From a virus, in the IMG/VR virus record IMGVR_UViG_3300032373_000002, positions 32,001 through 96,000 of that record: DNA of 64,000 bases; one strand, given 5' to 3'. The notes under the pieces were generated by a model, which was given only the letters and a program-made list of their open reading frames with translations, had not been told where the DNA came from and ran no database searches. The stretch's first letter is position 1. Each line of letters starts with the position of its first letter. Made by a program: the position numbers and the translations under genes. Below are positions 15,352-47,008 of the stretch, piece after piece.

Positions 15352-15491
15352 GGCGAGGTGGGCAAAAGGAAAAGCCACTGGTTCAAGGCACCAGAGATTA
15401 GCATCTCTCAGCTGCGCAACTCGCTCTCCTAACCAGAGAGCCCTACGCATCAGCCTACAAGCATTTGCAGGTTCGAGTCCTGCCCTCGCCA
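15352..15491 (+). ncRNA. giant-variable-arm tRNA-like RNA A (anticodon position AAG)
   Basis: GGCGAGG/CCTCGCC acceptor, D, anticodon and T arms; about 70-nt variable region ending CCTACAAGC. Confidence 0.75.
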
Positions 15492-15671: not shown

Positions 15672-15814
15672 GGGGAAGTCGCCGGATGGTCCGGCAATCG
15701 GTCAGTAAAACCGATGCATCACGCATCTCCAGAAGCGGTCCTCGCCTCCTCCGACCGAAGAGGCACCTCACCAGCTTCCTACAAGCTCAGTAGGTTCGAT
15801 TCCTACCTTCCCCT
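15672..15814 (+). ncRNA. giant-variable-arm tRNA-like RNA B (GTA anticodon, A33)
   Basis: GGGGAAG/CTTCCCC, GCCG-GATGGTC-CGGC, TCGGT-CAGTAAA-ACCGA; module ending CCTACAAGC; GTAGG-TTCGATT-CCTAC. Confidence 0.78.
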
Positions 15815-19227: not shown

Positions 19228-19311
19228 GCGGTGGTGGCGGAATCGGTCTACGCAGCAGATTCAAAATCTGCCGACCTTCGGGTCTTGAGGGTTCGAATCC
19301 CTCTCACCGCA
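19228..19311 (+). tRNA. tRNA-Leu(CAA)
   Basis: Canonical class II cloverleaf, GCAGA-TTCAAAA-TCTGC, A73. Confidence 0.95.
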
Positions 19312-19508
19312 CTCAACCCCTGGAGCCTACGATGCACCCAAGCCGAAGCCGATACTGCACGGCCAAGCACCCCCAGACCGGGGAGCGGTGCCGCCGGAAG
19401 TGGATGCACTGGGGTCAGCATCGGACCCACGCCGACGCCAAGGGCATCGTCCTGAAGTGGTTCGGCTCGACCAACAACTGAGACTTGGAGCTCCGGTAAC
19501 AACACTTG

Positions 19509-19790
19509 CGCCAGGAAGCCCTAACGCCGGCAACCCATGGTGGGTTGTACGGGCATCTTGGAGGCAGAGTCCGGGGGTTCGAGTCCCCCCTACAACACCT
19601 TCCCTACTCTAAACACCACACTCTGTTGTGTTCGGAAGGTGCCGTAAGTAACCCAAGCCGCTGAAACTGACAGTAGAGCGTGTAAGGCTGAGGTGGGAGG
19701 TTGCTGGTGGAGGCTCTTGTGGCTGGATCTGGGTATCCTTGGGGAGTTTAACTGCCTCCTTGAAGAGAGGTTCGATTCCTCTCCTGGCCT
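19509..19790 (+). ncRNA. about 280-nt tRNA-capped RNA with a second internal T-arm
   Basis: GCCAGG/CCTGGC closing stem, terminal T-arm, GGAGGCAG/CTGCCTCC, internal GGGGG-TTCGAGT-CCCCC. Confidence 0.65.
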
Positions 19791-19969
19791 TTTGAGAAGA
19801 GAACTCACCTCTTTGAAAACCCAAGCTGATCGACTTCCCCCCGGAGGGTGGTTGCCTCAACAGCAACACCCTCTTGGTCAGGGGACAGCCGCTGAGGGAG
19901 TGCGGCTGCTAAGGGACCAGGGTTCCCCGGACAACAACCACACCGTCCAAAACCCGAACCCCTCTTCAT

Positions 19970-20067
19970 GTACCAGGTAGCTCAACGGGAGAGTATCGCG
20001 GGGCCTACGAACTCCGGAGGTTCAGCGCCTAATGCGAAGGTTGCAGGTTCGAGTCCTGCCTTGGTAC
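19970..20067 (+). ncRNA. tRNA-like RNA with an extended anticodon arm (G-1:C73 possible)
   Basis: TACCAGG/CTTGGTA, normal D and T arms, TCGCG/TGCGA enclosing a 33-nt structured insert. Confidence 0.7.
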
Positions 20068-20075
20068 CTCAAATC

Positions 20076-20336: not shown

Positions 20337-20387
20337 CCAACACGACCTTCCGCCGCGCTCTGGAGCGCTTGGCGAGCAGGTAACAAC

Positions 20388-20630
20388 GGATAGGCAAGCC
20401 TGATTGCCTGGTTCGGGCGGAGCAGTTCTCCTGGGGGACTGCAACACCGCTAACAAAACGAACCGAAGCAGACGGGGATGCGCATCCCCGCTGACGCTGG
20501 ATGCATAAGCCTTGGGGAAGGCTGAAACCTCTGGGTCGGGGACGCCCGATTCGGAGGAGAACCCGGCGACACCTTGCCGGCCTGGATCCGAGGCGAGTGG
20601 TGTGACCCAGTCGGGGAGAGTCCCGGCACC
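20388..20630 (+). ncRNA. unclassified highly structured RNA between tRNAs
   Basis: A series of nested hairpins after GGTAAC; no credible ORF. Confidence 0.5.
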
Positions 20631-20632
20631 TT

Positions 20633-23992: not shown

Positions 23993-24150
23993 GCTCTGAA
24001 GGTTGCGTCAAGACGGTTCGAGTCCGTCGTCCCCTGGGCGCTTTGGGGGCGGGAGTTCGATTCTCCCCACCACCCTCTTTCGAGTAGGTGGTGCCAGGAC
24101 GGCAAATAGGGTAGCACCCGCGCAGGGAGGTTCGATTCCTCCCCAGAGCA
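23993..24150 (+). ncRNA. 158-nt RNA with three T-arms
   Basis: GCTCTG/CAGAGC closing stem; GACGG-TTCGAGT-CCGTC, GGGAG-TTCGATT-CTCCC, GGAGG-TTCGATT-CCTCC. Confidence 0.75.
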
Positions 24151-29755: not shown

Positions 29756-29797
29756 GGGTTCAGAGGTAAAGTGGGCATCGACCAAGAAGGAGACCTA

Positions 29798-30598
29798 ATG
29801 GGTGCAGGAAGGTTCAGCCTCAGCGGCTCCAGCGTGAGCGGCATCAGCTCCAGCATCGTCTGGGAGAACAGGCGAATCTGCTTTGATGTGGGCAACCCGT
29901 TCGAGGCGCTGAAGTGCGGCACAGTGCTCATCACCCACGGCCACCTGGACCACGCCGGTGGCCTGCCTCAGCACTACAACATCCGGAAGATGCTGGGGCA
30001 GCGCACCACCTACGTCCTCCCCCGCCAGCTGTTGCAGGAGACCGTAGGGGTGCTGAAGGGCTGGGCTGGGATCCAAGAGGAGGAGTACACCAGCCCCATC
30101 TTCGTGCCGCTCGACATCGGGCAAGAGCACTGCCTGGGAGGCAAGCTCTGGGTCAAGCCCTTCTACACCGATCACCGCATCGACTCCCAAGGCTACCTGA
30201 TCGTGGAGCGGCGCAAATCCCTCAAAGCCGAGTACAGAGGGCTGCCGGGAATGGGCCTGGGCAAGCTACGGCGAGGAGGGGTGGAGATCGACCAAGTGAT
30301 CGACATCCCCATGATCGCGTACACCGGGGACACCCGCGCCACCATCTTCGAGCGCGGAGAGGAATGGCTCAACGCCGAGGTCGTCATCACCGAGTGTACC
30401 TTCCAGGGAGAGTCGATCAGCCCCAAACAGGCTGCTGCGCGGGGACACACCCACCTCAGCCAACTCGTCGAGCGAGAGGCGGCGTTTCGACACTGCGGTA
30501 AGTTGGTCTTGACCCACCGTTCGAAGCGGTACAGCCTGAAGGACATGAACGAGGCCCTTCAGGCCACCCCCCTGGCTGACAAGGCCGTGTTTTTTTGA
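29798..30598 (+). CDS. rnz: RNase Z / tRNase Z (metallo-beta-lactamase fold)
   Basis: THGHLDH, HRIDSQGY, KxLKxEY.GL.G exosite, YTGDT, ECTF, GHTH, THRSKRY. Confidence 0.88.
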   Translation: MGAGRFSLSGSSVSGISSSIVWENRRICFDVGNPFEALKCGTVLITHGHLDHAGGLPQHYNIRKMLGQRTTYVLPRQLLQETVGVLKGWAGIQEEEYTSPIFVPLDIGQEHCLGGKLWVKPFYTDHRIDSQGYLIVERRKSLKAEYRGLPGMGLGKLRRGGVEIDQVIDIPMIAYTGDTRATIFERGEEWLNAEVVITECTFQGESISPKQAAARGHTHLSQLVEREAAFRHCGKLVLTHRSKRYSLKDMNEALQATPLADKAVFF

Positions 30599-35856: not shown

Positions 35857-35951
35857 CCCAGGCTTGGGTCCCCGGTAATAAGTCTTGCCTAAAGGGCTTG
35901 ACCCCACTCTACCAGTAGGGTAAAGCCACAAGGCTCGGTCTTTTACAACTT

Positions 35952-36084
35952 GGGGTGATACAGCAGGTTGGTCCTGCAATGGTCTGTTAAACCACCAATC
36001 ACCAGGCTTCTTCCTCGCTCGGCTTGACCTCTGAGCACCACGGATAGCCCTACAAGCATCGAGGTTCGATTCCTCGTCACCCCA
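35952..36084 (+). ncRNA. giant-variable-arm tRNA-like RNA C (GTT anticodon)
   Basis: GGGGTGA/TCACCCC, TGGT-CTGTTAA-ACCA, module ending CCTACAAGC, CGAGG-TTCGATT-CCTCG. Confidence 0.78.
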
Positions 36085-36116
36085 CTCGCCGCTGAAGCAC
36101 ACGGCATGAGCCTACA

Positions 36117-36191
36117 AGCAAAGTAGCTCAATCGGTTGAGCATTCGATTCGTACTCGAAAGGTTGTTGGTTCAATTCCAACCCTTGCGCCA
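36117..36191 (+). tRNA. tRNA-Thr(CGT) with imperfect acceptor, 5' end overlapping CCTACAAGC
   Basis: TTCGA-TTCGTAC-TCGAA, normal D and T arms, terminal CCA. Confidence 0.7.
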
Positions 36192-36230
36192 AATACAAGC
36201 TCCGCCACTCGCTTCAACGGCACCCTTTCT

Positions 36231-36369
36231 GCGGGAGTCGCCGGATGGTCCGGCACCAGCCTACCCAGCTGTTCAACGCAACTCTCAGAGGCTGACCTCG
36301 CGTACCTCGCTAAGTACGCACCTTCGGTCCTCCTACAAGCCTTCGTAGGTTCGATTCCTACCTCCCGCT
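36231..36369 (+). ncRNA. giant-variable-arm tRNA-like RNA D (ACC anticodon, U73)
   Basis: GCGGGAG/CTCCCGC, D arm identical to RNA B, CAGC-CTACCCA-GCTG, module ending CCTACAAGC. Confidence 0.78.
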
Positions 36370-36398
36370 CTTGGATCCTCGCTCTTTGCACGCAGCCT

Positions 36399-36486
36399 AC
36401 AAGCAATGCCGAACGGTTCAGGCAATCGACTGAAACTCGATCGAGGTGGGTGACCACCTTTGTAGGTTCGAATCCTACTGCTCTCG
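36399..36486 (+). tRNA. atypical tRNA with GAA (Phe) anticodon, long variable arm and only a 4-bp acceptor
   Basis: ATCGA-CTGAAAC-TCGAT, GAGGTGG-GTGA-CCACCTT, GTAGG-TTCGAAT-CCTAC. Confidence 0.6.
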
Positions 36487-36533
36487 CTACAGAGATCAAC
36501 CAGCTGCTGCCCTCGCGAAGATCCAACCCCCTA

Positions 36534-39736: not shown

Positions 39737-41629
39737 ATGACGAACCCCCCCGACCCCGTGAGCCAGGAGCGGCTGGAGAGCCTCGGCCCCGCCGAGCGCA
39801 CCGTTCAGGTGCTGAGCAACTTCACGGACCACCTCCGCCACAACCGTCCCGGCTTGGTGACCGACGACCCCAACGCCCCGTGGGGGAACAGCTGGCAGCA
39901 GGCAACTTGGAAGGTACAGGAAGACGGGACCAAGGCGGTCTCGACCCTCCGCAAGGTCGGCACCCGCACCCTCAAGACCACGGTCGGCACCCTGGGCGAA
40001 GACGGCAAGACCGTTCGGAACAGCCAGGGGAGCATCGCCGGCGAGTACCGCAAGCCCGGCATCTACCCGGAGGTCGCGGTCTTTCTCTACAGCCAGATCG
40101 CCGAGATCTGGAAACTCGACGCCGAGTTCAGCGCTCACCTCGCCAGCTGGGTCTTCTCCCAGGACCGGCGAGACCTCAAGACGGTCGCCGCCGCCTTCAT
40201 GCTCAGCCAGAGCTACGCAGGCCAGCCGGTCACCGAAGGGGGAGAGGTCATCTTCTACGAGGACGACTTCCGATCCGTGGGTGAAGCCATGATGCTCCTC
40301 CGCAAGAAGGGGCAGGACCTCAGCCCCAAGCAGGTTCTGCAGGTCGGGGAAGTGCTCTGCCTGCCAGGGATCCACGCGATCAACCGGGAGCTGGGGTTCA
40401 CCCGCAGCGCAAAGAACCCCAACCTCAAGCGCTGGAAGAAGGCTGTCAAGCGGTGGCTGCGCTACCGCGAGGACAACCCGCGCATGCTGGCGGGTCTGGT
40501 CAAGTCGGGCCAGTCCAACACCGTCAAGGCCCTGGCGCGGCGCTGCGGCTACAAGCCCGCAAGCGAAGAGTTCTTCCGCGTTCTCAACTGGAAGCAGAAG
40601 CAATCCGCGGACGGCCACCGGGCCATCGGCCTGGACATGGAGACCGAGGCGGCGGAGACCTGGGACGGCAAGACCGAGGCGGAGATCTGCCAGTCGATCG
40701 TCGCGGACCAGCTGGGCTGGAAGGTGATCGTCGGCAAGCTGCCGGCTTCGGTGGGGGTGACCCCGGCCATCTTCGCGGCGGCGGTCGAGTCTGGGGCCAT
40801 GAGCAACAAGGACCTGATCATCCTGACCCCGACCATCGAGGAGCTGGGGCTGATCGACAAGGAGCCGGTCGCTTCGGCCTGGAAGCGGGCGATCCAGGCG
40901 GCGGGAGACCAGCGGGCGCGGAACATCGCCCTGCGGGTTCGGTCCAAGGAGGCCAAGGGGGGCCTGGAGGAAGCCGCCGACGTCGCCACCGCCAAGGCCA
41001 TGGAAGAGGCGACCAGGAACCTGCGGGTGTGGGTCCCCATCGACATCTCTTCTTCGATGGACAGCTCCCTGGCGCAGGGCAAGGAACTGCTCAGCAAGTT
41101 CCTTGGGGGCTTCCCCCTGGAGCGGACCCACGTGAGCGTGTTCAACACCGTGGGCCGGAGGGTCACGATCCGAGCCCCTCGACGGGCAGCGGTCGTCAAC
41201 GCCCTGGGCAAGTTCCGGGCCAGCGGCGGCACCACCTACTGGTCGGGGCTGATTCCCCTGGCGGGCAACCTGCCCCAAGAGGAAGAGGATCTCCTGATCC
41301 TCTGGGTCGGCGATCAGGCTGGGGAGAGCGGGACGGACCTGGCCCGGCGCATGCGGCAGAACAACATCAACCCGGTCGCCTTCGGCTTCTTGGAGCTGCC
41401 GGGCATGCGGGGCAACACCATCGATGCCTGCGCATACTCCCTGGGCATCCCGTGCTTCCGCATCAAGCCCGAGCTCTTCGACGACCCCTATGCTGTGACG
41501 CAGGTGCTGAAGAACCTCATCGCATCAACACCGACTGCGACCACTGCCCGGATCGTGACCCCCCGCAAGACGCTGGTTCAGCAGGTCCTGGAGACTCCCC
41601 TGCTTCGGCGTCCGAACTGGGCCCAGTAG
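39737..41629 (+). CDS. helical protein with C-terminal vWA domain (TROVE/Ro60-like architecture)
   Basis: VPIDISSSM (DxSxS MIDAS), SGGT, WVGD; helical N-terminal region. Confidence 0.72.
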   Translation: MTNPPDPVSQERLESLGPAERTVQVLSNFTDHLRHNRPGLVTDDPNAPWGNSWQQATWKVQEDGTKAVSTLRKVGTRTLKTTVGTLGEDGKTVRNSQGSIAGEYRKPGIYPEVAVFLYSQIAEIWKLDAEFSAHLASWVFSQDRRDLKTVAAAFMLSQSYAGQPVTEGGEVIFYEDDFRSVGEAMMLLRKKGQDLSPKQVLQVGEVLCLPGIHAINRELGFTRSAKNPNLKRWKKAVKRWLRYREDNPRMLAGLVKSGQSNTVKALARRCGYKPASEEFFRVLNWKQKQSADGHRAIGLDMETEAAETWDGKTEAEICQSIVADQLGWKVIVGKLPASVGVTPAIFAAAVESGAMSNKDLIILTPTIEELGLIDKEPVASAWKRAIQAAGDQRARNIALRVRSKEAKGGLEEAADVATAKAMEEATRNLRVWVPIDISSSMDSSLAQGKELLSKFLGGFPLERTHVSVFNTVGRRVTIRAPRRAAVVNALGKFRASGGTTYWSGLIPLAGNLPQEEEDLLILWVGDQAGESGTDLARRMRQNNINPVAFGFLELPGMRGNTIDACAYSLGIPCFRIKPELFDDPYAVTQVLKNLIASTPTATTARIVTPRKTLVQQVLETPLLRRPNWAQ

Positions 41630-42033: not shown

Positions 42034-42089
42034 GTCCTGCCTCCGTTAGTAGGCTGCGAATTAAAATTCCACTATTGAGGAGACCCTCC

Positions 42090-43064
42090 ATGGGCTGGCA
42101 AGACCTACTGAGCCAAAATCACACCCAGACCCTCGCGTGGTTGGGGGGCAAGACCGCCCTGGACGCCAAGCGGTCCTATCGAATTCAAGGTCGACGCCCC
42201 CAGCACCGAGGGTGGCACCAGTTCCAGGTCCAAGGACGCAGGGCAACGTGGGTGTCTTCCGAGGAAGAGATCACCCCTCCCTACGAGGTGGGAGGCTTCA
42301 ACACGGTGCGAGGCTACCTCGCAGGGAACCGGCTGATCGCGGACGGTTCGGCCTACCCTCCCCAGATCCAAGCACTGTTCGGAGCACCCACTGTGTACGG
42401 GCTTCCGCCGGGGCTCGACCCGTTCACGCGGGTGCTGTGCTGGGAAGTGGTGCCCGGAGAGTCGATGCTCTACCTGGGGATTGAGTTCCCCGCAGGACCG
42501 GAACCCGAGGTCCTGATCGCCTTCGAAGACCAACTGAGCATCGACAGCATCCCTGGGGTGGACCCTGCGCTTCATGCCGCATTCAGCTTCCTCCGGGAGA
42601 TGGAGCGGGTCGAAGAAGAACAGAACCGCTTGCTCCGAGAGCGTCAGGAGGCGGAGGTGAGGGCTCTCCGGGAACAGGCCGCGCGAGAAGCCGCCGAACA
42701 AGAGCGGCTGGGCCGACTGGAAGAGATGCGCCGGAACATCGGAAGTGCGGCAGGTCGCCGGAACATGGCACAGCAAGACCTGCGGGCTGCTTGCCTGGCG
42801 GCGCTCCAAGTCAGCGGGGCCGAGCTGATCTCCGTCCGGGAGAGCTACTCCTCCGAAGAGAGCGTGGTGCGGTTCCGCTTCCTTGAGCGGAGGTTCGAGT
42901 GCGTCATCAACTCCTCCACCTTAGCGGTGACCGAGGCCGGCATCTGCCTGACGGATGAGATGACCGGCGAGCGCGGGGACACCCGGTTCACGCTGGAGAG
43001 CCTGCCTTCGGTCATCAGGGAGGCAATCGACCTGGACGTGTTGGTGGTGTTCCGCCACGTCTGA
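42090..43064 (+). CDS. putative E2-like conjugating protein
   Basis: GAGGAG RBS; C-terminal domain with AGICL resembling the E2 G.ICL catalytic Cys; near JAB, Ubl and E1 genes. Confidence 0.5.
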   Translation: MGWQDLLSQNHTQTLAWLGGKTALDAKRSYRIQGRRPQHRGWHQFQVQGRRATWVSSEEEITPPYEVGGFNTVRGYLAGNRLIADGSAYPPQIQALFGAPTVYGLPPGLDPFTRVLCWEVVPGESMLYLGIEFPAGPEPEVLIAFEDQLSIDSIPGVDPALHAAFSFLREMERVEEEQNRLLRERQEAEVRALREQAAREAAEQERLGRLEEMRRNIGSAAGRRNMAQQDLRAACLAALQVSGAELISVRESYSSEESVVRFRFLERRFECVINSSTLAVTEAGICLTDEMTGERGDTRFTLESLPSVIREAIDLDVLVVFRHV

Positions 43065-43863: not shown

Positions 43864-44247
43864 ATGCTCGAAACTGCAGTCGTCTTCGACCAAGAGGGTC
43901 AGGCCCTCCACTGGCACGAGCCTCTGGACCGTTCCGGAGTCTACCTGCCGGACTCCCCCGACTTGTGGTCGGTGCTCTGGGGCCACAGGCGGGTGCTCGG
44001 GGGGGTCGCCCACACCCACCCATGGAAAGGTCGGGCGTGGCCCTCCCAAGAGGACCTGACCACCTTCCGGGCCGTGGAACAGGGCTTGGGAGTCAACCTC
44101 GTGTGGCCGGTTGTGACGTTTACGGATGTACTGTACTTGGAATGGAACCCAGGAATCAATCAGTACTGGTCCAAGATGCCACCGCGCATTCGGGTAGGCT
44201 CGAATATCCTGGAAGAACTTCGAGACCGTAGCGGGCGGATCCGGTAA
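43864..44247 (+). CDS. JAB/MPN+ (JAMM) metallopeptidase
   Basis: N-terminal E plus AHTHP......PSQED. Confidence 0.85.
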   Translation: MLETAVVFDQEGQALHWHEPLDRSGVYLPDSPDLWSVLWGHRRVLGGVAHTHPWKGRAWPSQEDLTTFRAVEQGLGVNLVWPVVTFTDVLYLEWNPGINQYWSKMPPRIRVGSNILEELRDRSGRIR

Positions 44248-45309: not shown

Positions 45310-45573
45310 ATGGGGCAGATCAACGACAACGAGGCATACGTCAACATCACCTGGAGCGGTCAGAACGGAGACCTGACCAGCCCGGTCCCCTATGACCTGA
45401 CGGACTCCGAGATCCGAACGCTGGCTGCCGCTTCCCTCTCCGAAGGTGCCGTGGCAGGGATGGACGCGGCGACAGCCGACTTCAGCGACTTCGTGGTGGA
45501 CCGCTTCGGCCCCGGCGAGGCGTACCCCTACAACCGGATCATGATTCGGCCGAAGACCCCGTTCGGGGCATAG
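45310..45573 (+). CDS. putative ubiquitin-like (beta-grasp) protein ending PKTPFG-A
   Basis: 87 aa, strong GGAGG RBS, beta-beta-alpha-beta-beta pattern, penultimate Gly, lies between JAB and E1. Confidence 0.6.
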   Translation: MGQINDNEAYVNITWSGQNGDLTSPVPYDLTDSEIRTLAAASLSEGAVAGMDAATADFSDFVVDRFGPGEAYPYNRIMIRPKTPFGA

Positions 45574-46435: not shown

Positions 46436-47008
46436 GTGAACATCACGATCGTGGGCGCAGGAGCGCTCGGTTCTCATGTAGTGCTGATGCTGCGGAACCG
46501 ACCGGAGAAGCTGACCGTCATCGACTTCGACCGGGTGGAGCAGAAGAACCTCCTCGGTCAGATGCACACGAAGATGGGGCTGCGGAGGAACAAGGCCCAG
46601 GCCCTCCAGCAGATGATGCAGGGGATGTTCGGGGTGCGGGTCGGAGTCAAGTCCGTCGAGCTTCGCAAGGACAACAGCGAAGCCCTCCTCCAGGACTCAG
46701 GGTTGGTCCTGGACTGCACCGACAACATCAAGGCGAGGCAAGAGCTCCAGCTTCACTGCCTGGGCTACGGCACCCCGCTGTTGCACGGAGCCCTGGCTGC
46801 AGACGGCACCTTCGGGCGGGTGGTGTGGACCGAGCACTTCCGCCCCGACCCCGAGACCCAGGGTGCTGCGACCTGCGAGGGTGGGGCCAACCTCCACTTC
46901 CATGTCATGGTAGCCGCGCACCTCGTGAGGGCAACCGTAGACTGGCTGGAAACGGGGAAGCAAGCGTCTTACAACATCCTCCCCGCAGGGGTGGTTCGAA
47001 TCGCATAG
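46436..47008 (+). CDS. ThiF/MoeB-family E1-like adenylyltransferase
   Basis: IVGAGALGS, IDFDRVEQKNL..Q, KAQAL, LDCTDN...R, ATCE (candidate catalytic Cys). Confidence 0.9.
   Translation: MNITIVGAGALGSHVVLMLRNRPEKLTVIDFDRVEQKNLLGQMHTKMGLRRNKAQALQQMMQGMFGVRVGVKSVELRKDNSEALLQDSGLVLDCTDNIKARQELQLHCLGYGTPLLHGALAADGTFGRVVWTEHFRPDPETQGAATCEGGANLHFHVMVAAHLVRATVDWLETGKQASYNILPAGVVRIA

Follow-up and report, generated by a model that had tools for sequence, protein, structure and literature searches.

Ro60 proteins partner Y RNAs, and the Y RNAs of bacteria and phages mimic tRNA; at least one tRNA-like Y RNA is cut by RNase P and given a CCA end (PMC4201824, PMC12135203, PMC7824862). Phage Ro60 homologues with adjacent Y-like RNAs have been published, and RNase P cleavage followed by CCA addition has been described for some YrlA RNAs (PMC4201824, PMC12135203). 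YrlA-type Y RNAs (PMC4201824), with Yrl1 and Yrl2 of phage phiLo (PMC12135203) among them, are non-decoding RNAs that contain a tRNA-like core, a canonical T-arm and a long helix in place of the anticodon arm. They are 80-130 nt long, both chain ends lie within a long Ro-binding stem, and the acceptor-like stem is closed by a loop.

Modules shaped like tRNA also act as processing caps, as exemplified by mascRNA at the 3' end of MALAT1 and by the tRNA-miRNA chimeras of murine gammaherpesvirus 68. In these eukaryotic and animal-virus systems a contiguous tRNA-like module lies beside its cargo and recruits RNase P or tRNase Z, thereby setting the ends of a non-tRNA transcript. In tmRNA the two ends form an acceptor and T-arm domain, and a long helix running in the anticodon direction leads into a large structured body. 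In bacterial tRNA genes, group I introns in the anticodon loop likewise interrupt the tRNA frame at the anticodon position.

Here we describe element A, a 281-nt non-coding stretch of a phage genome with the outer frame of a tRNA and, at the anticodon position, a branched insert that contains a second T-arm. We assign a probability of roughly 45% to the reading that element A is a lineage-specific, non-decoding tRNA mimic that is released from a tRNA-island transcript by RNase P and tRNase Z, and that may act as a Y-RNA-like partner or as a decoy.

Element A lies in the tRNA island of a huge phage

The window, by which we mean the whole 64,000-nt stretch of DNA that was analysed, corresponds to bases 32001-96000 of a 115-kb IMG/VR virus record (IMGVR_UViG_3300032373_000002) with a G+C content of 62%. 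The record is estimated to be 22% complete, which puts the whole genome at roughly 400-500 kb and makes the window part of a huge phage. All 14 tRNA genes that ARAGORN calls in the window lie on its + strand, in the interval from 14.4 to 36.5 kb. Nearly all consensus T-arms are confined to the same region: of the 26 found in the 115-kb record, 25 share that interval and strand, and 12 lie outside the tRNAs called by ARAGORN. The island also holds about 10 (at least 10) further aberrant tRNA-like genes of 96-142 nt, in which the 7-bp acceptor is perfect and the anticodon or variable arm is enlarged. Seven of these aberrant genes were folded, and three gave z-scores of -3.1 to -4.1 against shuffled sequences.

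Element A is bordered by tRNA-Leu(CAA) (19228-19312) on one side and by a 98-nt aberrant tRNA-like gene (19971-20068) on the other. The ORFs that overlap it have a flat GC content by codon position, with GC3 values of 0.47-0.60 compared with 0.73-0.90 for neighbouring genes, and the element is therefore non-coding. Neither a sigma-70-like promoter nor an intrinsic terminator was detected when the + strand was scanned from 18.9 to 21.0 kb, which is consistent with release from a polycistronic tRNA transcript by tRNA-end processing.

Element A combines a tRNA frame with a branched inner domain

The features of element A are as follows.

19510-19515, + strand: acceptor 5' strand, GCCAGG; pairs with 19783-19788 at a probability of 0.96 when the element is folded alone
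19518-19554, + strand: D-like arm, GCCC (19518-19521) with GGGC (19551-19554); stem probability 0.54-0.98
19556-19567, + strand: 5' strand of a 12-layer helix (UC, UU, GGAGGCAG) at the position of the anticodon stem
19560-19567 and 19752-19759, + strand: 8-bp stem, GGAGGCAG with CTGCCTCC; probability 0.85 in isolation
19573-19589, + strand: inner T-arm, GGGGG-TTCGAGT-CCCCC; CTACAAC follows at 19590-19596
19596-19603 and 19634-19641, + strand: inner hairpin domain, CACCTTCC with GGAAGGTG; probability 0.91-0.98 in every context tested
19652-19743, + strand: third inner domain, marked by complementarity of CCCAAG (19652-19657) with CTTGGG (19738-19743); the least certain part
19752-19763, + strand: 3' strand of the 12-layer helix (CTGCCTCC, UU, GA), from sequence and fold
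19766-19782, + strand: terminal T-arm, AGAGG-TTCGATT-CCTCT; exact consensus, with the acceptor 3' strand directly after
19783-19789, + strand: acceptor 3' strand, CCTGGC, and an unpaired C, read from the sequence

All of the helices listed in the initial annotation (the acceptor, the T-arms, the D-like arm, the 8-bp stem and the inner helices) can be read in the sequence at the positions given there. As in a tRNA, a T-arm (GGTTCGATTCC, 19766-19782) is stacked on the acceptor, which has 6 pairs, not 7. All six are Watson-Crick pairs, and the seventh is mismatched in both registers (C19509.C19789 or A19516.C). CCA is not encoded at the 3' end, where TTTT comes next. Both T-arms match the tRNA consensus GGTTCGANTCC exactly. 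The D-like arm is not a canonical D-arm, and its loop holds a 7-bp hairpin formed by CAACCCA (19531-19537) and TGGGTTG (19541-19547) with a probability of 0.88. The 8-bp stem is lengthened by a UU/UU internal loop and then by UC (19556-57) opposite GA (19762-63). Compared with a canonical tRNA, element A lacks U at position 8, carries the hairpin in its D-loop, has no 5-bp anticodon stem, has a variable region of 2 nt, and has five extra bases ahead of the long helix. Since a branched domain takes the place of the anticodon arm, element A would be unable to decode. The good pairing within this non-canonical frame argues for selection on structure and against fresh debris.

The innermost part of the structure is less secure. 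The initial annotation had proposed a CCCAAG/CTTGGG stem; the complementarity is there, but the exact helix has a probability of 0.00 in the ensemble and was favoured in none of the contexts folded, and the minimum-energy fold pairs this region in a shifted register.

Chance and folding tests on the frame

The frame of element A is unlikely to have arisen by chance. In a test that was designed after the structure had been seen, the 430 nt upstream of the terminal T-arm were shuffled in 3000 trials. A 6-bp acceptor partner alone occurred in 822 of the 3000 shuffles (27%), an acceptor together with a properly nested 8-bp stem in 9, and an acceptor, a nested 8-bp stem and a D-like stem in none (0/3000). 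A looser descriptor of the long frame (7-bp stem, G-U allowed), applied to 564 T-arms of the phage and its relatives, returned 20 matches versus 6-18 in shuffles and is not clearly enriched. The descriptor for a T-arm followed by a closed helix was weakly enriched, with 19 matches against 10.8 expected.

In a fold of element A by itself, probabilities of 0.77-0.96 are obtained for the acceptor, the terminal T-arm, the 8-bp stem and the inner hairpin. With 50 nt or more of flanking sequence the acceptor, the 8-bp stem and the inner T-arm all drop to 0.00, unlike the acceptors of the true tRNAs of the island, most of which persist with flank. The fold of the whole element is no more stable than those of shuffled sequences (z = -0.88). 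Of the nested non-coding RNA with a tRNA cap that had been put forward in the initial annotation, the tRNA-like frame, the second T-arm domain and the non-coding character are borne out, and the long-range helices are not predicted once at least 50 nt of flank is added.

These results bear on a serious rival, which we consider a tentative but real prospect: in a fast-turnover island, insertions and recombination at conserved T-loops may have broken up one or several tRNA genes and left element A behind, with no function as a unit and with any transcript degraded as spacer. The z-score of the fold and the near-background yield of the looser descriptor both fit such debris. So does the sequence CTACAAC-A-CC after the inner T-arm, which resembles a former tRNA 3' end and has a possible GTTGTA partner only 29 nt upstream. 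However, a perfect 8-bp stem and a 6-bp acceptor that span 190-270 nt in correct tRNA geometry are rare by chance. The frame is also far from that of a canonical tRNA, so that any disruption would not be recent, yet the pairing is intact.

Element A does not belong to a known RNA family

Scanning with Rfam and ARAGORN, which had been proposed as a check on the initial annotation, identified element A neither as a tmRNA nor as a member of another known family. At default thresholds ARAGORN found no tmRNA in element A and no tRNA with introns of 0-400 nt, and its tmRNA search at a 90% threshold returned nothing for the element. A permuted tmRNA called at the 80% threshold was rejected as spurious, as its tag reads through a T-arm. 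With Rfam there was nothing on element A at the gathering score and nothing above 21 bits at E values up to 10. The best match from the tRNA clan was tRNA-Sec on 19691-19790, with 21 bits against a gathering score of 47, and the tRNA model itself did not match element A. The inner T-arm gave a weak mascRNA-like match of 16 bits. The best tmRNA match, on a T-arm, reached 11 bits against a gathering score of 84. Models for group I and group II introns, Y RNAs and ribozymes had no match in 19300-20000 at E values up to 10, and Intron_gpI had none on 14000-37000 at E values up to 5.

A divergent tmRNA, in one piece or permuted, that rescues stalled ribosomes in infection would have a similar topology, with ends that form an acceptor and T-arm, a long P2-like helix at the anticodon position and a large structured body, and tmRNAs are known in huge phages. 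We nevertheless judge this identity to be very improbable. ARAGORN finds no tmRNA at its default or 90% settings, its 80% call is spurious, and all Rfam tmRNA models score 11 bits or less on element A. The G3:U70 pair is missing; as the initial annotation had observed, the acceptor does not begin with GGGGC, and its 3:70 pair is C-G or G-C depending on the register. Element A also has a full D-like stem, which is missing in tmRNA. Inspection by eye for a tag frame revealed only short frames such as AVSNPSR*, which do not have the typical tag ending, and none ends in a hydrophobic degradation tag.

The length of element A also equals that of a tRNA plus an intron of about 205 nt, which is the size of the smallest group I introns in bacterial tRNA genes. 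A tRNA gene whose intron is removed by self-splicing or by enzymes, leaving a normal decoding tRNA, would account for this size and for an insert at the anticodon position. We consider it extremely improbable, since neither the Rfam group I and II intron models at E values up to 10 nor ARAGORN at default thresholds with introns of 0-400 nt found anything. There is no detectable intron core and no canonical tRNA that could be restored: no anticodon stem of 5 bp with U33 in its loop is obtained with any choice of splice sites, the stem is preceded by five surplus nucleotides, a hairpin occupies the D-loop, and the D-arm, too, is expanded. Neither RtcB nor a splicing endonuclease was found in the 115-kb fragment; the same holds for a CCA-adding enzyme, although at 22% completeness these absences say little.

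It is also conceivable that the frame is coincidental and that the locus encodes at least two small tRNA-like RNAs, one ending at the inner T-arm and another of about 100 nt ending at the terminal T-arm. Such an arrangement would agree with the loss of the long-range helices of element A in the presence of flanks, with the sub-threshold 21-bit tRNA-Sec match on 19691-19790, and with a relaxed ARAGORN search (90% threshold) in which 19685-19791 is weakly parsed as a 107-nt tRNA containing a 34-nt insert. This last parse of the 3' part, which appears at relaxed thresholds only, would equally suit debris. However, both alternative parses are sub-threshold and have poor acceptors (4 Watson-Crick and 2 G-U pairs), the inner T-arm has no acceptor partner at tRNA distance, and the nested frame of 8 bp and 6 bp is much stronger. 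We therefore regard separate RNAs as quite unlikely.

Element A has no detectable relatives

Related huge-phage genomes were gathered through homologues of the Ro60-like protein described below. BLAST of element A against 28 of these records gave T-arm-sized matches only and no orthologue, which also counts towards debris. A covariance model of element A scored 13 bits or less outside its own genome, and its inner 180 nt have no paralogue within that genome. BLAST of 19300-19950 against the phage record collection returned no match. A pattern scan of IMG/VR for the inner T-arm with CCTACAAC had 0 matches. The proteins encoded nearby were also used as anchors: two scans of viral contigs retrieved no relatives, and one metagenome scan retrieved only distant, partial matches of 34-55% identity.

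A second nested element shares the architecture and the 5' flank

A sibling of element A is found further along the island.

19493-19503, + strand: upstream motif, the 11-mer CCGGTAACAAC, 6 nt ahead of the proposed 5' end of element A
23993-24150, + strand: sibling nested element B, 158 nt, with three T-arms

Element B consists of a 6-bp acceptor, a 5-bp inner stem at the anticodon position and a terminal T-arm at its end. The inner stem encloses two T-arms, each of which is continued by a closed helix of 6-7 bp. Its minimum-energy and centroid structures are identical, with a z-score of -2.87 and 1 of 200 shuffles as stable. The same CCGGTAACAAC 11-mer lies 4 nt ahead of the start of element B at 23993, and both elements start with GCnnnGAAG. 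No other evidence from within the genome speaks as strongly as this common 5' flank for a real RNA start at 19510 and against an accidental nested design. A sibling that shares both its architecture and its 5' flank makes it more plausible that element A is a deliberate nested RNA, and our preferred explanation is that elements A and B are two nested tRNA mimics of one phage. For debris, by contrast, neither a significant fold with regular modules of a T-arm plus closed helix in element B nor a common motif at the starts of both elements would be expected.

The motif core GGTAACA occurs 7 times in the window, versus 2.1 expected, and 4 of the 7 copies (19204, 19495, 20825 and 23980) sit 6-17 nt upstream of the 5' ends of tRNAs or tRNA-like genes. 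It could be a processing signal, a promoter signal, or an overlap with stop codons. A scan of IMG/VR with the shared 5' motif returned 36 matches, about the number expected by chance, and 0 of the 36 had a tRNA-like element downstream. A lone match with a T-loop-like word was rejected because it looks coding and contains no tRNA.

Several further observations were made on these sequences. GGTAACA is preceded by CCGG or GGAGG; it stands ahead of tRNA-Leu, element A, tRNA-Arg(CCT) and element B, and is also found at 20379. Element B weakly matches the permuted cyanobacterial tmRNA model in the acceptor region of the latter (21-22 bits). The best match of its own covariance model elsewhere, 23 bits in one related genome (G001), was discarded on inspection since the acceptor is unpaired.

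The phage encodes a Ro60-like protein and arrays of tRNA-like RNAs

A gene downstream of the island provides a possible connection to Y RNAs.

39737-41629, + strand: Ro60/TROVE-like protein of 630 amino acids with a vWA domain; putative link to element A

An AlphaFold2 model of this protein has a mean pLDDT of 80.5. In a Foldseek search of the PDB the top 11 matches of the model were Ro60/TROVE proteins, with E values of 2e-7 to 1e-5, alignments of 500-600 columns and modest TM scores of 0.35-0.49; Deinococcus Rsr and the Ro60 of Thermus phage phiLo are among the matches. By sequence the protein matched neither Pfam TROVE nor any PDB entry. More than 1000 homologues were found on huge-phage contigs, among them one with 84% identity and six with 58-60%. 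The gene lies among tRNA arrays in 27 of the 27 distinct related IMG/VR loci scanned, and in most of these loci tRNA-like RNAs of 120-150 nt are found within a few kb of it. The clade tRNA-like RNAs that were read share a conserved "CTC-hairpin...YACAAGC" module ahead of the T-arm. Given the Ro60-like gene, the tRNA-like arrays, and the tRNA mimicry of Y RNAs, this lineage therefore maintains non-decoding tRNA mimics.

A number of these RNAs merit description in their own right. In the window, tRNA-like genes of 130-145 nt with perfect 7-bp acceptors are located at 15352-15491, 15672-15814, 35952-36084 and 36231-36369. Each has an insert of 55-75 nt in the variable region that ends in the conserved YACAAGC just before the T-arm. 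Relatives occur in related loci, for example at L004:9064-9530, L027:9160-9640 and L002:6400-7020, and the YACAAGC module is again found beside the Ro60-like gene where the proteins share only about 50% identity. We regard the 130-145-nt RNAs as strong candidates for the Y-like RNAs of the clade. They alternate in conserved arrays with tRNA-like units that carry a (C)CTACAAGC / CTCACAAGC motif (36111-36190 and 36396-36487 in the window; L004:9545-9640, L014:16250-16410 and L015:15100-15220 in relatives), in which the motif runs into the 5' strand of an acceptor that pairs poorly. In the relative IMGVR_UViG_3300044680_000280 (L010:8160-8426), a 267-nt tRNA-like RNA called by neither ARAGORN nor Rfam has a perfect 7-bp acceptor, a D-arm and a T-arm. 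This RNA, from a tRNA array that begins the approach to the Ro60-like gene 1.6 kb upstream of it, is analogous to element A, but the roughly 180 nt by which it is expanded lie in its variable region. Immediately after the Ro60-like gene of IMGVR_UViG_3300028177_000001 (L002:11950-12035) there is a 14-bp terminal stem, GGCAACCACCAACC/GGTTGGTGGTTGCC, that encloses D-arm-like and T-arm-like hairpins in a compact, Y-RNA-like layout. Four genes downstream of the Ro60-like gene in the window (42075-43064, 43864-44247, 45310-45573 and 46436-47008) adjoin it in 22-26 of the 27 loci.

Comparison of element A with the YrlA-type RNAs reveals likenesses and differences. Element A has a tRNA-like domain, with two consensus T-arms and a D-like stem, and its genome also encodes a Ro60-type protein. 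However, at 281 nt with a second T-arm it is far larger than a YrlA RNA of 80-130 nt. Its ends form a tRNA acceptor, not the long bulged Ro-binding stem of a Y RNA, and its long helix is closed by a branched domain, such that the topology is permuted relative to YrlA. Positions 19510-19790 lack the GNCGAAN0-1G motif and have no Rfam match, and the Ro60-like gene is 20 kb downstream instead of adjoining; other tRNA-like RNAs (35950-36490) are nearer to that gene. Element A contains only a near match to the array motif (CCTACAAC), and the YACAAGC module of the Ro60-linked tRNA-like RNAs is absent. A connection between element A and the Ro60-like protein is something that we infer only, and the distance to the gene and the absence of both GNCGAAN0-1G and YACAAGC weaken it.

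A model of element A as a probable tRNA mimic

In our preferred reading, element A would be transcribed within the + strand tRNA island, and its ends would pair as an acceptor stacked on a canonical T-arm. An acceptor with a T-arm is the minimal shape of an RNase P or tRNase Z substrate, and tRNA-processing enzymes could thus excise the element. As in mascRNA and the gammaherpesvirus chimeras, a tRNA shape would set the ends of a non-tRNA transcript; in element A, by contrast, the cargo lies inside the tRNA frame. In place of the anticodon arm, the 12-layer helix would lead to a three-branch domain that displays the second T-arm, and the RNA would most likely work by offering proteins a tRNA-like surface. 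Its partner might be the phage Ro60-like protein, in the manner of a Y RNA; alternatively, the RNA might serve as a decoy or sponge that occupies host factors with affinity for T-arms and tRNA elbows. This reading is weakened because no orthologue of element A, and hence no covariation, was found in the 28 related genomes, its inner 180 nt have no paralogue, its fold z-score is only -0.88, flanks abolish its long-range helices, and its acceptor has only 6 pairs.

We also entertain a broader proposal, which is speculative and on the whole unlikely. With elements A and B, a new class of branched tRNA mimics with multiple T-arms may have come to light in huge phages that encode Ro60. Such RNAs would be matured by the tRNA-processing machinery, and might also be opened at the internal modules of T-arm and closed helix into multi-piece RNAs with several acceptor-like ends. 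During infection they would tether or titrate tRNA-binding enzymes of the host, or defence nucleases that target tRNA.

If element A is a real RNA, it extends tRNA mimicry to a 281-nt molecule that keeps the acceptor and T-arm "handle" and has replaced the decoding arm with a branched domain bearing a second T-arm. The huge phages in question form a clade in which a very divergent Ro60-like protein is accompanied by arrays of odd tRNA-like RNAs. If real, element A would thus offer a testable system for how phages use the shape of tRNA, not decoding, on the RNA-processing, quality-control and defence proteins of the host, and for the evolution of Y-RNA-like partners out of tRNA genes. Should the element be debris, its main lesson is the speed at which phage tRNA islands decay.

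Other features of the tRNA island

Two long, non-coding, hairpin-rich spacers on the + strand of the island, at 20340-20632 and 19800-19970, may contain further unannotated RNAs; one of them begins directly after another GGTAACAAC motif. Enrichment of CCTACAA in the phage mostly reflects codon usage within genes, and only the CCTACAAGC copies in tRNA-like arrays are RNA-related. Between tRNA-Leu and element A lies an ORF on the + strand (19332-19481) that encodes a Cys/His-rich product of 49 amino acids and has a coding-like GC3 of 0.88. It has no Pfam match, and no homing-endonuclease domain was found in it or in the neighbouring ORFs. At 29771-30598 (+ strand) the phage encodes a possible tRNase Z, a protein with a metallo-beta-lactamase fold (Pfam Lactamase_B_2, 28 bits); the gene for its homologue in L004 (7920-8714) directly adjoins a tRNA-like array.
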